The notes under the pieces: generated by a model
The model's database searches: none
Told to the model about the DNA's origin: nothing
Seen by the model: only the letters and a program-made list of their open reading frames with translations
Position numbers and translations under genes: made by a program
In this document: piece after piece, positions 19,140-23,367 of the stretch
How the letters are laid out: every line of letters begins with the position of its first letter
Numbering within the stretch: the first letter of the stretch is position 1
Assembly (NCBI GenBank): GCA_016839945.1
Contig: JAEOTE010000161.1
Coordinates: 1-44,583 of the forward strand
Origin: Candidatus Heimdallarchaeota archaeon
GTDB taxonomy: Archaea > Asgardarchaeota > Heimdallarchaeia > Heimdallarchaeales > Heimdallarchaeaceae
Reading direction: 5' to 3'
Length of the DNA stretch: 44,583 nt

Positions 19140-19817
19140 GTGAAGAATGGTATGACAAACGAATTAGAAATACTAACTAAAGAAATTCTTGTTTGCGAGG
19201 AGTGTCATCTTAAGCTAGGGAGAACACAAGTAGTTCCAGGAATTTATGGCCCTCAGAAAAGTATATGTTTTGTAGGAGAGGCACCTGGATATTATGAAGA
19301 TCAGCAAGGGCTTCCTTTTGTAGGTAAATCAGGAGAGCTTCTAGATAATATGTTAAAAGACACAGGTTTAGCAAGAGAGAAAGATGTAAGTATTCTTAAT
19401 GTAATTAAATGTCGTCCTACTACTGATAATGGACAAAATCGAACGCCTACAGATTCAGAACTGAGATTTTGCGGAGAAACATGGTTACATAAGCAACTAT
19501 CTTTGCTTTCTCCAAGATTAATAGTTACTCTAGGGGGAATAGCCCTTAAATTTTTTATTCCTAATGGAAAGGTTACACAACTTGCTGGACAACTTGTCAA
19601 ATTCGATGAATCAAATTACGTCTTTGTTACTTACCATCCAGCTTATATTTTGAGGAAAAAAACCTTAGAAATGATGGAAGAATATAATTCTCATTTTGAA
19701 CAGATATTAAGTTTATATCAAAAAGAAACGTTTGATCAAGAGTACGAACAAGTTATAGGAAAAGATGGGCAATCAAGCATGAAGACAAATCAGAAGTCAC
19801 TAAAAGATTTTCTGTGA
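19140..19817 (+). CDS. udg: Uracil-DNA glycosylase family 4 (Fe-S) with C-terminal PIP box
   Basis: CEECHL, FVGEAPG..ED.QG.PFVGKSG, NVIKCRP..NRTP..E..C, TYHPAY; ends QKSLKDFL. Confidence 0.92.
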   Translation: MKNGMTNELEILTKEILVCEECHLKLGRTQVVPGIYGPQKSICFVGEAPGYYEDQQGLPFVGKSGELLDNMLKDTGLAREKDVSILNVIKCRPTTDNGQNRTPTDSELRFCGETWLHKQLSLLSPRLIVTLGGIALKFFIPNGKVTQLAGQLVKFDESNYVFVTYHPAYILRKKTLEMMEEYNSHFEQILSLYQKETFDQEYEQVIGKDGQSSMKTNQKSLKDFL

Positions 19818-19960
19818 AGTTTCCCTTTTGGAGAAAAACACACGTTATGAAACTTGGTTAAACTTACCAGAGGTTTTTTAACCGTCGTTTAAGAGGATCC
19901 CCTCACGTGTGTTGAGGGGAAGAGATCGTAAGGAAGGAGAGTACCTTGGAGGGAAGCAAT
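19794..19960 (-). ncRNA. Putative omegaRNA (right-end RNA) with guide AGAAAAUCUUUUAGUGACUU
   Basis: Hairpin 19898-19920 whose loop is complementary to 19838-19844 (pseudoknot); hairpin 19856-19883; terminal hairpin 19820-19836; then TTCAC. The 5' boundary is approximate. Confidence 0.65.
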
Positions 19961-21902
19961 ATTCATAGTAGCATTCTTGTGAGTGTTAACTTGTTGTCCG
20001 CACTTTCTACATGGAGCAAAGTCATGATGCTTGTCATCACGAACAATCATCCCTCCACAACCATAATGCTTGGAGCTAGTATGATAGGGGGAAACTGTTT
20101 CTAACTCTACATCATAGCCTAACTCTAAAGAGGCTAACCAAACAGCTTTCTTATAGATATACAAAGAATCAGGCATGTTGTAAATTGCTTTAGCTAACGC
20201 TCCTTTCGTACCAGCAGGATCAGAAGTTAATTTCTCAATCTTCAAGGTTTGACACTGCTTCTTCACCAGCGCTGCAGCTAAGAAGTGAGGTAAAAGACGA
20301 GTGATTTCTCGAAGAAGACAACTACGACGCTTATAGACTCGATTAAGCTCTCCCTTAAGCTTACAAGCACCTTTAACATCGTAAACTTTACGTTTGTTAA
20401 AGAATCCTTTATTTAACTCATTGAGAACCTTTTCTGTTAACTGTTTGTAACGTTTAGCTAAATGCAACAAATCTGGTGGAAGAGGTATAGGAGTGTTGAA
20501 CACTACCATATATTGGCCTAAGCGGTTAATATCTATCCCTAACACTTTATTCCTCCCTTTTGGAATTTGAGAGAGATAACAGTGAAGAAGGGTAAAGGAT
20601 CGGAAACAGTCGTGGGCACCTTCTAGTACCACATCTACGCGAGGTTTGAAACTAGGTGCACTACCACTACTCACTTGAAAGACCTTGATTTCTGCACCGT
20701 TTTTAAGATATTCTAACACTTTTGGGGGGAATAACACCTGAGCTGTAAGTTTTTTCTTGCCTTTTAGAGGGAATCCCAAAGTGGTGGTTCCTTGTTTCTT
20801 TACTTGTCTGGTCAAGTCGCTTGCATTACCTTCACGGGAAATAACATAATCTTTTTTCATTAACAATTTTATTGGTAATCTTCCTTTCTTTTTTCTTTTA
20901 AATGGGAGAGGAACAAGCTTAGCTGCAGGTAAACCTTTGAGTAACTGAGGGACACTCTGCATGAAATGATCAAAGAGTGTGAAAACAACTATCTGCCTGA
21001 CAGCAGAGAAAAGTTTTCGATTAGGTTTGCCTATAATTGTAGCTAGTTCCTTAGATAGTTTTTTGAGACTTTTCCAACGAGAAGATTGATAGCTATTAAT
21101 CCACGAAGTTACAAACGGTACAACTACTTGTCGTTCTTGTTTCAGAAGATGCAGTTTGTTCAGAAACGTTTGCTGGTTCTTCGAGAGGGTAGGTAAAAGT
21201 GCGAAAGTGTTAGTTTGGTAAGCTAGCGCATCGTCAATCCCTTGCACAACATCTAGTTGTGTATAAGTCGGTAACGCCCCATTAAACACCAAGGTTTTAG
21301 AGAAATAGTAATCTCTCTTTTTCTTTCTATTATAAGAATCTAGCTGAAGTCTCGAACTGGTTAGCAAGTTAATAACATACCTTCTGTTCAATTTCCAGTA
21401 TTTCCCCATACTACATTCAGTATAGGGTGATCTTCCAAACACCATCCACTCCACCAGTTGTTGGGGATTTTTCTGCATGAAGTTGAGCATCCCTTCCACT
21501 TTCTGTTCTTTATCTATCTTCCCCTTTACTGCTATCTGGAGCCAGTGATAAGCGCTTTCAGCTATGTTAGGATTCTTCCTTACTGCCTTCCCTACTTGGC
21601 GCACAAAGAACCGTTCTTTGGGATTAGCTCGATAGAGTGCTACAGCTTGCTTAACAACATTTTGAGTAAGAAGGTGGTGTTGCCTTTCTTCTAATCCCCG
21701 TATGCGTTGGTTGATTTCTTCTCGTTGAACTGGTGAGTCACACTTTAGTACCACCTGGTAACTCCTCATCACTGTATCTAAGATACGCGGTTGAGAAGTG
21801 TGAGGGTTGGTAGTTGTTTGTGTGCCCATCTTTTCGTCATTATAATGTACAGATTGTTATTTAAACCCGGTAAAATTTCAGATAATGTTTATGTTTTTTT
21901 TG
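19814..21902 (-). mobile_element. IS200/IS605-superfamily TnpB-only element (IS1341-like, non-autonomous)
   Basis: On the minus strand the left flank ends TTAC (21906-21903) and the right end is ...GGGAAACTTCAC (to 19814). Excision restores udg ...GAT TTT CTG TAA. The interior is visibly more GC-rich than the flanks. No TnpA is present. Confidence 0.75.
19889..21829 (-). CDS. tnpB: Large TnpB/Cas12-like RNA-guided RuvC protein (646 aa)
   Basis: WED strand VMRSYQVVLK, PFKRKK linker, RuvC-I VLGIDIN, RuvC-II LKIEKL, VSPYHTSS-HxxC..CxxC zinc finger, RuvC-III NTHKNATMNIA (His at the Asp position). Confidence 0.88.
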   Translation of the reverse strand: MGTQTTTNPHTSQPRILDTVMRSYQVVLKCDSPVQREEINQRIRGLEERQHHLLTQNVVKQAVALYRANPKERFFVRQVGKAVRKNPNIAESAYHWLQIAVKGKIDKEQKVEGMLNFMQKNPQQLVEWMVFGRSPYTECSMGKYWKLNRRYVINLLTSSRLQLDSYNRKKKRDYYFSKTLVFNGALPTYTQLDVVQGIDDALAYQTNTFALLPTLSKNQQTFLNKLHLLKQERQVVVPFVTSWINSYQSSRWKSLKKLSKELATIIGKPNRKLFSAVRQIVVFTLFDHFMQSVPQLLKGLPAAKLVPLPFKRKKKGRLPIKLLMKKDYVISREGNASDLTRQVKKQGTTTLGFPLKGKKKLTAQVLFPPKVLEYLKNGAEIKVFQVSSGSAPSFKPRVDVVLEGAHDCFRSFTLLHCYLSQIPKGRNKVLGIDINRLGQYMVVFNTPIPLPPDLLHLAKRYKQLTEKVLNELNKGFFNKRKVYDVKGACKLKGELNRVYKRRSCLLREITRLLPHFLAAALVKKQCQTLKIEKLTSDPAGTKGALAKAIYNMPDSLYIYKKAVWLASLELGYDVELETVSPYHTSSKHYGCGGMIVRDDKHHDFAPCRKCGQQVNTHKNATMNIASLQGTLLPYDLFPSTHVRGSS

Positions 21903-21966
21903 GTAAGATTGAGTAGATTTCGCTCAATAGTTGACAACAGTTATATGTCGCAGCGAGTGCAGAAAA

Positions 21967-23367
21967 ATGATGGGTAAAGGTTTGAGATTATTTGGAACTG
22001 CAGGTATTAGAGGTCCTTTTGGAGTTAAAGTTACAGCAGAACTAGTTTTTGAGGTCAGTCAAGCTGTTACAGAACTCTATCCTTCCAAAGGGATAGTTAT
22101 AGGACATGATGCTAGAACTTCATCAGAGTCATTAAGTCAATGCGCTAAAGCTGCTGTTTCACTTGCAGGTGGAAAGGTTTTTTCTACGGGCTTATGTTCT
22201 TTCCCTGTTATAGCAAATCTAACATTGAATACTAATCATTCTGTTGCAATTTACATAACCGCATCTCATAATCCCCCTCAGGATAATGGAATCAAAGTTC
22301 TTAGAAATGGAAGAGAGTTTACCAAAGAAGAACAAAATCAAATTGAAGAATTGATAGAGAGAAGGAGAGAAGAGGAAAGATTAATTCAGCATGAACAATG
22401 GAGCAATCTAATCCCTCAGAAAGAGATAGAAGAAGCGAATGAAAGATACATCAAGAGGATTATGAGAGATTTAGATTTCAAAGGAGATGGAAGGAAGATA
22501 ATCTTGGATTGTGCTAATGGTCCAATGTCTAATCTAGCACCAATTTTACTAACGCAATTTGGTTTTCAAGCTGTGACTATAAATTCCCACATAGATGGTC
22601 ATTTTCCTGGAAGGTTGGCAGAACCTAGTCCACAGAATCTTAGCGTACTTATTGATCTGTGTAAGAAAGAGAAGGTTTTGGGAGTTGCTTTTGATGGTGA
22701 TGGTGATCGAATAGCTTTAGTAAATGAAGAAGGTGAATTTGTAGAATTATCCAGAACAAACGCTCTTTTAGCTACTTTTGCTATAGAAGAACACGGACCT
22801 GGCAAAATTATTCTAAGTATTGATTCCTCAACTACTGTGGATAAAGCAGTTCAAAATTTAGGAGGGATAATTGTTAGAACACAGTTAGGTGAACTTCATG
22901 GTAAAGCAAAAGAAATCATAGAAAATAAAGAAAAAGTAGTTTTTGCTGCTGAACCATGGAAACCTATTTTTCCAAATTGGGGTTTGTGGATAGATGGTTT
23001 GTATGCTTTTTCTAAATTGTTGAAAGTGATAATAAAGCGTAAAACAACTGTTTCTGAAATAATGGAGGACATCCCAAAGCACATTGCAGAGAGAAAAGCT
23101 TTTCTTGTAAACGAGGAACGAGTAACAATAATTTATGAAAAGTGCCAACAAACTCTTAAAGAATTCATGAAAAATGAAGAAAAACAGATCTTAACAATAG
23201 ATGGACTTCGATATGATTTAAAAGACGGTACTTGGATTTTGATCAGAAAATCTGGTACAGAACCTAAAATCAGAATTTATTATGAATCACCCACTCCAGA
23301 TAGATTTGATTGGATTGAGAACATAGTAAAACAAATTGAGAATATAATCAAGAATGAAGGTAATTAA
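21967..23367 (+). CDS. Alpha-D-phosphohexomutase superfamily enzyme (PMM/PGM; possibly phosphopentomutase-type)
   Basis: LFGTAGIRG, ITASHNPPQDNGIK, FDGDGDR, IRKSGTEPKIRIY; sugar loop AAEPWK. Start revised from TTG 21931 to ATG 21967. Confidence 0.9.
   Translation: MMGKGLRLFGTAGIRGPFGVKVTAELVFEVSQAVTELYPSKGIVIGHDARTSSESLSQCAKAAVSLAGGKVFSTGLCSFPVIANLTLNTNHSVAIYITASHNPPQDNGIKVLRNGREFTKEEQNQIEELIERRREEERLIQHEQWSNLIPQKEIEEANERYIKRIMRDLDFKGDGRKIILDCANGPMSNLAPILLTQFGFQAVTINSHIDGHFPGRLAEPSPQNLSVLIDLCKKEKVLGVAFDGDGDRIALVNEEGEFVELSRTNALLATFAIEEHGPGKIILSIDSSTTVDKAVQNLGGIIVRTQLGELHGKAKEIIENKEKVVFAAEPWKPIFPNWGLWIDGLYAFSKLLKVIIKRKTTVSEIMEDIPKHIAERKAFLVNEERVTIIYEKCQQTLKEFMKNEEKQILTIDGLRYDLKDGTWILIRKSGTEPKIRIYYESPTPDRFDWIENIVKQIENIIKNEGN

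Follow-up and report, generated by a model that had tools for sequence, protein, structure and literature searches.

A candidate RNA-guided endonuclease with a His-containing RuvC site, encoded by a tnpA-less IS607-family element of a Heimdallarchaeal genome

Introduction

Is an oversized TnpB-like protein, in which a His stands at the position of the third catalytic Asp of the RuvC nuclease site, a new host effector of Asgard archaea, a binding protein devoid of nuclease activity, or the nuclease of a transposon? This question is raised by an open reading frame (ORF) of 646 codons found in Candidatus Heimdallarchaeota archaeon (assembly GCA_016839945.1), at positions 19889–21829 of a stretch of 44,583 nucleotides (contig JAEOTE010000161.1, positions 1–44,583; hereafter, the window), on the minus strand, where all features of the element described below are also located. 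An initial annotation, made from the DNA letters, had described the product as a TnpB with an expanded REC lobe and a D-E-H active site, and had proposed either an Asgard lineage of large RNA-guided effectors, framed by analogy with Cas12 and Fanzor1, or a binding-only protein like the nuclease-dead TldRs, with the caveat that the His might be a private mutation. The analysis reported here indicates that the ORF most likely encodes an RNA-guided endonuclease of the TnpB type, carried by an IS607-family insertion sequence that is non-autonomous (tnpA-less) and has entered the space between udg and glmM, a reading to which we assign a probability of about 0.8.

Results

The ORF, the codons of D433, E532, and H617, and the HxxC start of the zinc finger were all found as initially annotated. 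An AlphaFold2 model of the protein, built on 58 homologues (mean predicted local distance difference test score, 85.5), has the bilobed WED–REC–RuvC fold, in which RuvC is interrupted by a TNB zinc ribbon: the first WED strand (residues 20–29) is followed by an all-helical REC segment (residues 33–305), extending up to the linker PFKRKKKGRLP (residues 309–319), and then by the WED barrel (residues 320–404) and the RuvC domain (residues 429–630) containing the TNB ribbon (residues 588–610). A Foldseek search with the model gave Cas12f and TnpB as the top matches (E ~1e-9), and VIA-align, over model residues ~19–630, gave Z scores of 13.5 for AsCas12f (356 residues aligned), 12.1 for ISDra2 TnpB (338 residues aligned), and 10.7 for mimivirus/ApmFanzor2. 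Because the whole Cas12f and ISDra2 TnpB chains are already covered by ~340–360 of the ~610 residues, the surplus length is assigned to the remaining helical region (residues 33–305), and in the model the REC lobe exceeds the usual length by ~150 residues; the predicted structure and the VIA alignments are thus in agreement with the REC expansion initially placed between the first WED strand and the PFKRKK linker. At the sequence level, the RuvC-II/TNB/RuvC-III region is aligned by HMMER to the Cas12f and TnpB chains of the PDB, the best Cas12f match in a PDB profile search having an E value of 1.7e-7.

Within the RuvC domain, the RuvC-I residue Asp433 (codon GAT, 20531–20533) is an Asp in 222 of the 222 relatives covering this position, and the RuvC-II residue Glu532 (codon GAG, 20234–20236), at its canonical position, is a Glu in 221 relatives and an Asp in 13. 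The third residue, His617 (codon CAC, 19979–19981), lies in the motif N-T-H-x-N-A-x-x-N-I and is assigned to the RuvC-III Asp position because of the HMMER alignment to Cas12f/TnpB chains, in which VNTHKNATMNIA pairs with the RuvC-III motif VNADYNAARNIA of CnCas12f1 and with other Cas12f/TnpB chains, and, over a longer stretch, ...CGQQVNTHKNATMNIA lies opposite ...CGYKVNADYNAARNIA of CnCas12f1. In the alignment of the 58 homologues, down to 38% identity, D433, E532, H588, C591, D603, C607, and H617 are all invariant, and realignment of all fetched relatives gave 225 His, 5 Gln, and no Asp among the 230 counted at position 617. All five paralogues in the source genome read TH.N, and three metagenome runs, all belonging to one study, gave contigs that cover the CAC codon, at which no variant is listed. 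The canonical D-E-D triad is therefore replaced family-wide by one with His as the third residue and, as judged from these alignments, His617 is fixed throughout the family and not a private mutation. Asp603 was considered as a compensating acidic residue and rejected, since the DF.C..CG motif in which it lies is found in D-E-D Cas12f as well. The zinc ribbon (20000–20068) is of the HCCC type, H588-x2-C591...C607-x2-C610 (H588 codon, CAT), with its first position occupied by His in 217 relatives and by Cys in 17.

The family to which the protein belongs is almost exclusively found in Asgard archaea. A word-indexed search gave 129 homologues, every one of which with a source name is from a metagenome-assembled genome (MAG) of Heimdallarchaeota or Heimdallarchaeaceae, and 1.84 billion representative proteins, searched exhaustively with a profile, gave 275 matches only. 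Among 301 genomes sampled from the phylum, including the source, 47 have a match at E ≤1e-10, comprising all 22 other genomes of the genus, 26 of the 28 in the family, and scattered genomes elsewhere; the named distant relatives are from Heimdall-, Hod-, Thor-, Odin-, and Helarchaeales MAGs and one MAG labelled Methanobacteriota. The initially proposed D-E-H lineage of large, mostly Asgard TnpBs is thus borne out.

Of the other 24 genus genomes, 23 have a udg that was located, and the position of the gene was compared in these. The gene order in all 23 is amidohydrolase–udg–glmM, with udg adjoining glmM without a tnpB-like gene, and among the genus genomes compared only the source genome has such a gene between udg and glmM. 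The empty sites in the closest relatives (G016 and G003; udg identity, 84–87%) read CATATAACTGTTTTTCTC and are laid out, in the element orientation, as ...TGA (udg stop)-N20-CATATAACTGTTTTTCTC, whereas in the occupied site that sequence is interrupted and reads CATATAAC-TGTT|GTCAAC...(element)...ACGTG|TGTT-TTTCTCC. Owing to the availability of these empty sites, the junctions of the element are known exactly: the whole insertion is 2095 bp long (19841–21935), with a 4-nt overlap, TGTT (AACA on the plus strand), at 19837–19840 and 21936–21939, within which the boundaries are ambiguous. The udg stop codon TGA is native, being present in the empty sites of the two related genomes, and the right-end junction lies 20–23 nt downstream of it; an insertion within this stop codon, with its regeneration by the element, finds no support in the empty sites. 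The element has hence landed recently between two housekeeping genes, in the source lineage only. The excised-form joint was not seen in the metagenome DNA contigs spanning the locus, and among the sequencing runs listed for the locus none was of RNA. As listed, glmM has a TTG start (21931–21966, plus strand) that is probably an artefact, its first codons being made of the 4-nt junction overlap and of target DNA adjoining the left end of the element; the start in the empty-site genomes is an ATG corresponding to window position 21967 or 21970.

The 646-residue protein has five matches in the source genome (35–84% identity); in each of 18 further genus genomes searched with it there are 1–17 matches, many of them cut by contig ends. 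When the flanks of 16–18 copies were aligned, many copies were found to have upstream a full gene or decayed pieces ending in ...EDMIALVTSFAGRLHRQRRGK. In one sister copy (L006), the intact upstream gene encodes a 204-residue protein with a MerR helix-turn-helix (39.4 bits) and a Resolvase domain (69.7 bits), identifying it by its domains as an IS607-type serine-recombinase TnpA. The arrangement characteristic of IS607, a TnpA of this type upstream of tnpB in the same orientation, is thus present in sister copies and absent from the window copy; about nine copies with a recognisable left end have a spacing of tnpA length between the left end and the ATG, and the others, including the window copy, are without tnpA. 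The left-end block of the window copy, GTCAACTATTGAGCGAAATCTACTCAATCTTACC (21902–21935), is common to the tnpA-bearing copies. Further downstream, a box resembling a transcription factor B recognition element and TATA element, GGGTTTAAATA (21852–21868), in which the TATA element ends 28 nt upstream of the ATG, is kept in 16 of 16 upstream alignments and is a putative promoter. The insertion polymorphism, the multiple copies, and the TnpA in sister copies together demonstrate that the element is mobile.

The 5′ flank of the window copy carries the pentanucleotide 5′-ACTGT (21937–21941), conforming to the family consensus AC-YGT, which is found in all 18 copies with a clear left end and is native to the empty site. 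The Y of the 5′ flank is identical to the Y of the right end, ...GTG-YGT, in each of the 18 copies (7 T/T, 11 C/C, none discordant). Such a match fits a serine recombinase, because this enzyme requires an identical crossover core in element and target, and, together with the TGTT overlap, is in keeping with the IS607 mode of crossover at a short shared core without a long target duplication. With the core Y being identical in element and target, AC-YGT is the insertion motif and also the obvious candidate for the target-adjacent motif (TAM) of the nuclease. The resident copy would be protected from its own nuclease, as its right-end junction has TG, not AC, before YGT. Two types of element were recognised among the ends of L001–L068: the T-type elements have the target ACTGT, the right end GTGTGT, and the loop ACACACG or ACGCACG, and the C-type elements have the target ACCGT and the right end GTGCGT. 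The core pyrimidine is thereby one and the same in the site of recombination, in the target, and in the pseudoknot helix described below.

Nucleotide conservation among the copies continues for ~50 nt past the stop codon of the ORF and then stops abruptly at ...CAAGTTTCATAACGTGYGT / ...CAUAACGUGYGU; directly after ...GYGU, the flank differs in every copy. This region contains a putative minimal omegaRNA scaffold of at least 82 nt (19838–19919), whose 5′ limit may be situated deeper within the ORF. Over the final codons of the ORF, CCCCUCA (19913–19919) forms a hairpin with UGAGGGG (19899–19905), and the hairpin loop ACACACG(U) (family, ACRCACG(U)) pairs with the terminal strand ACGUGUGU (19838–19845; family, ACGUGYGU) to form a pseudoknot, with an inner hairpin UUAAAC/GUUUAA lying between the outer hairpin and the terminal strand. 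The 3′ strand of the pseudoknot adjoins the variable flank, the end of the scaffold being the element boundary. A conserved structured RNA over the 3′ end of the ORF, a sharp stop at the right end, and a variable flank beyond it are the hallmarks of OMEGA (obligate mobile element-guided activity) systems, by analogy with which the 3′ flank UUUUCUCCAAAAGGGAAACU (19818–19837), located in the spacer between udg and the element, would be read through from the scaffold and serve as the guide.

The pseudoknot helix is also supported by covariation. Across 50 copies, with 36 distinct combinations among them, 7.0 of the 8 positions are paired on average, as compared with 6.3 ± 0.1 when the partners are permuted, and the observed value was reached in none of 2000 permutations. 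This signal emerged only once the deep subfamilies (24–47% protein identity) were added, which have the same architecture with different complementary strands (CGCAUAC/GUAUGCG, CACAUAC/GUAUGUG, CGCAUGU/ACAUGCG, CACAUGC/GCAUGUG, and UGCACGU/ACGUGCA). No family was found in an Rfam scan of 19500–22200 with E values up to 1. The conserved C-terminal peptide of the protein, P-S-x-H-x-R-G (P-S-x-H-V-R-G), results from translation of this omegaRNA hairpin (19889–19919), and in many copies a 1-nt insertion producing GTG-TAG-GGG converts the Arg codon to TAG, so that the protein is shorter by 3–5 residues with the RNA stem left intact (the conserved tail or the early TAG was noted in L002, L006, L010, L011, L013–L015, and L021). 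Since the stem persists where the frame ends early, selection keeps the RNA rather than the peptide tail.

A second constrained region is located in the middle of the ORF, where a block at codons ~240–347 (20815–21090) shows almost no synonymous change. Codon identity in this block is 0.72–0.79, against 0.36 expected and ~0.5 elsewhere in the gene, and synonymous change is near zero over ~300 nt across 15–16 copies whose proteins are 65–83% identical. Within the block, the hairpin ACACUCU-N15-AGAGUGU (20952–20980) has a counterpart of 6–7 bp at the same alignment column in six of six deep subfamilies, the sole such place in the ORF, and is kept in position rather than in sequence through paired amino-acid changes (FP..GK, SP..GG, SS..EE, and TLF..QSV); the folding z-score of the block is −1.65. 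An overlapping ORF behind the constraint was rejected, no alternative frame being open for >65 codons. A natural short isoform beginning at Met324, where several database proteins begin, was not supported, because assembly breaks in the conserved mid-ORF repeat fit better; metagenome contigs have loose ends at 20805–20940, in this repeat. It was also noted that metagenome unitigs of other paralogues branch at the block, and that a TTTAAA box lies inside it at 20895–20905. The block might serve as a promoter internal to the gene, as a signal for RNA processing, or as an accessory site for recombination (the recombinase), and nothing comparable to this nucleic-acid element has been described for TnpB elements.

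Two groups of relatives are distinct from the main subfamily. A second subfamily (L004, at G000:C47:1965-6539; L023; L078–L081), which shares ~40% identity with the window protein and has the D-E-H site as well, is found in two genomes at a distance of 65–140 nt from a tRNA-Cys(GCA) of convergent orientation. In at least six genomes its pseudoknot is directly followed by a near-identical 18–20-nt flank (ACGCATAGCCGCTCTGCT-like), pointing to a copy fixed by vertical descent, with its guide conserved, or else to site-specific homing. Giant relatives, P0174 (1669 residues), P0182 (1784 residues), P0156/P0270 (1327/1344 residues), P0148, and P0144, from Hodarchaeales, Odinarchaeota, and Thorarchaeota MAGs, have a C-terminal D-E-H TnpB-like module preceded by 600–1000 residues without a known fold and with a weak AbrB/MazE-like match. 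Weak fused MazE-like matches are carried by two distant relatives. The giant family members, of 1200–1800 residues, in Thor-, Odin-, and Hodarchaeales could represent a new class of large RNA-guided effectors.

Discussion

The results described above are best accounted for by a transposon-borne nuclease, for which the TnpB elements already characterised suggest a mechanism by analogy. The element would be transcribed from its own TATA-type promoter, and the 3′ end of the transcript, from the last ~10 codons to the right end, would fold into the pseudoknotted omegaRNA scaffold. Because the 3′ strand of the scaffold abuts the flank, read-through past the scaffold would yield a guide of ~20 nt identical to the flanking DNA. 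The MerR-resolvase TnpA, supplied in trans, would excise the element through a crossover in the YG/YGT core, restoring the joint AC-YGT + flank; the TnpB–omegaRNA complex would then recognise AC-YGT as the TAM and cut the joint with the D433–E532–H617 RuvC site, and recombinational repair from a sister copy would put the element back.

Several points weigh against this proposal. The curated models cover the C-terminal part of the protein only and score below their cut-offs (NF040570, guided_TnpB, 30.2 bits versus 100; PF07282, TNB, 24.7 bits versus 26.3). An intact tnpA was not found in the source assembly (88% complete), which contains only a 63-residue TnpA remnant, and the window copy may therefore be stranded. 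In the main subfamily alone, RNAalifold gave two compensatory pairs, with a score matched by 3 of 500 shuffles, a modest result, and the thermodynamic z-score of the 3′ RNA is weak (−1.0). Furthermore, the placement of His617 beside D433 and E532 is derived from sequence alignment, cleavage of DNA by the His-containing site is an assumption, and no direct assay of a D-E-H RuvC or TnpB was found in the literature searched.

The last of these points bear on an unlikely alternative, in which the protein has kept omegaRNA binding, and perhaps processing, and the His abolishes or strongly reduces DNA cleavage, leaving an RNA-guided binder or nickase that would, for example, tether or mark the donor joint. 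The Asp-to-His change removes a carboxylate normally holding a metal ion, and the Gln found at position 617 in five relatives adds to the case. However, D433, E532, and H617 are strictly conserved across a family that has diverged to 24–40% identity, whereas dead TnpBs (TldR, Cas12k, and the Ri branches) have lost several catalytic residues (PMC10691335), and the elements continue to proliferate. A His also serves as a metal ligand in other RNase H-fold nucleases, as in the DEDH site of Argonaute PIWI and His983 of Cas9 RuvC. We retain the reading of the protein as a transposon nuclease. It may tentatively be suggested, though we regard this as rather doubtful, that the family combines active D-E-H nucleases of altered chemistry (in metal use, nicking, or the lack of collateral cutting) with a second functional element inside the ORF.

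Very unlikely is the view that the window copy has become a domesticated, immobile RNA-guided regulator like TldR, or a host effector evolving towards a system of the Cas12 or Fanzor type, even though the large REC lobe, the lack of tnpA in this copy, its tight spacing to its neighbours, and the second subfamily, residing at one conserved site beside tRNA-Cys in several genomes, speak in its favour. TldRs, reportedly described by Wiegand and co-workers in 2024, are said to be immobile and truncated, to have lost catalytic residues, and to have guides matching host promoters. The window protein resembles them in its TnpB descent and its changed RuvC residue, but the element is mobile, the protein is full-length with D/E/H conserved, and the candidate guide is derived from the flank. 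In addition, the insertion is absent from 23 of the 23 other genus genomes with udg, the transposon ends in its flanks match those of tnpA-bearing copies, and the guide region is locus-specific, so that for the window copy the empty sites contradict a domesticated regulator; the binding-only, TldR-like option of the initial annotation is accordingly not upheld for an IS607-type element whose insertion is polymorphic, which is present in multiple copies, and whose guides are dictated by the flanks. Finally, although CAC is only one base from GAC, the idea that an ordinary D-E-D TnpB has been altered by a private mutation, or by an error of sequencing or assembly, is refuted by the absence of Asp among 230 relatives, the invariant His in all 58 aligned homologues, and the contigs of three runs without a listed variant.

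The comparison with known systems places the family among TnpBs of an already described kind. Altae-Tran et al. (2023, PNAS) divided TnpBs into five major clades, of which RIIIr-4 is defined by the Asp-to-His change in RuvC-III, is without a C4 zinc finger, includes archaeal MazE(AbrB)/RHH (ribbon-helix-helix)-associated TnpBs, and is predicted to be active (PMC10691335); four of the five clades, RIIIr-4 included, hold both Y1- and serine-recombinase-associated members (PMC10691335). The window family shares with RIIIr-4 the conserved His in place of the RuvC-III Asp and the intact RuvC-I Asp and RuvC-II Glu. As to the zinc finger, which RIIIr-4 is said to lack, the ribbon kept here is H-C-C-C, neither of the canonical C4 type nor lost. 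Judged from sequence features, the H-C-C-C finger and the weak MazE-like fusions are compatible with a place inside RIIIr-4. The family differs in being almost only Asgard, ~640 residues in length, with a REC lobe of ~275 residues, and so isolated that the profile search gave 275 matches only. As RIIIr-4 had already been described, the RuvC-III His is a published feature and not a discovery, contrary to the novelty initially implied; the family is a new, mostly Asgard, large member of the known His-variant kind.

With ISDra2 TnpB and the OMEGA systems of IS200–IS605–IS607 elements (PDB 8H1J, 8EXA), the window system has in common the WED–REC–RuvC–TNB architecture, a pseudoknotted guide RNA that lies over the 3′ end of the ORF and ends at the transposon right end, a TAM equal to the transposon target motif (here a candidate), and a presumed role in transposon retention. 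It differs in the size of the protein (646 versus 408 residues), in the active site (D-E-H versus D-E-D), and in the transposition machinery, a serine recombinase with the AC-YGT target in place of Y1 TnpA with TTGAT; its scaffold, of which at least 82 nt are seen, looks short. Cas12f (AsCas12f, 8DZJ; CnCas12f1, 8HR5) gave the best structural and sequence matches, but the window gene is borne by a transposon, has His at RuvC-III, and is unaccompanied by adaptation genes or by a CRISPR array, no such array being present in the 44.6-kb window, as initially noted; the gene is thus not that of a type V (Cas12) system.

The likeness to Fanzor1 and Fanzor2 lies in a size larger than that of TnpB, in the association of Fanzor2 with IS607-type elements, and in the structural match to ApmFanzor2. 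The hallmark of Fanzor is a RuvC-II Glu relocated ~45 residues away (PMC10530073), whereas Glu532 of the window protein is canonical, and the hosts are Asgard MAGs rather than eukaryotes or giant viruses. The PDB profile search showed no sequence-level affinity to Fanzor, nothing found in the analysis backs an Asgard-to-eukaryote link, and the Cas12/Fanzor1-like framing is abandoned. No paper mentioning TnpB together with Heimdallarchaeota was found in the literature searched.

Altogether, the question raised by this locus is settled in that the His is a trait of the lineage and the gene is that of a transposon nuclease, not of a new host effector. The window copy provides a complete and readable system for a RuvC variant that has yet to appear in an assay in the literature searched, with its parts at hand: exact ends drawn from an empty site, AC-YGT as candidate for the TAM, a pseudoknotted scaffold of short length, and a candidate guide of 20 nt. 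The locus also documents the activity and diversification of IS607/TnpB elements in Asgard archaea of the Heimdall type.

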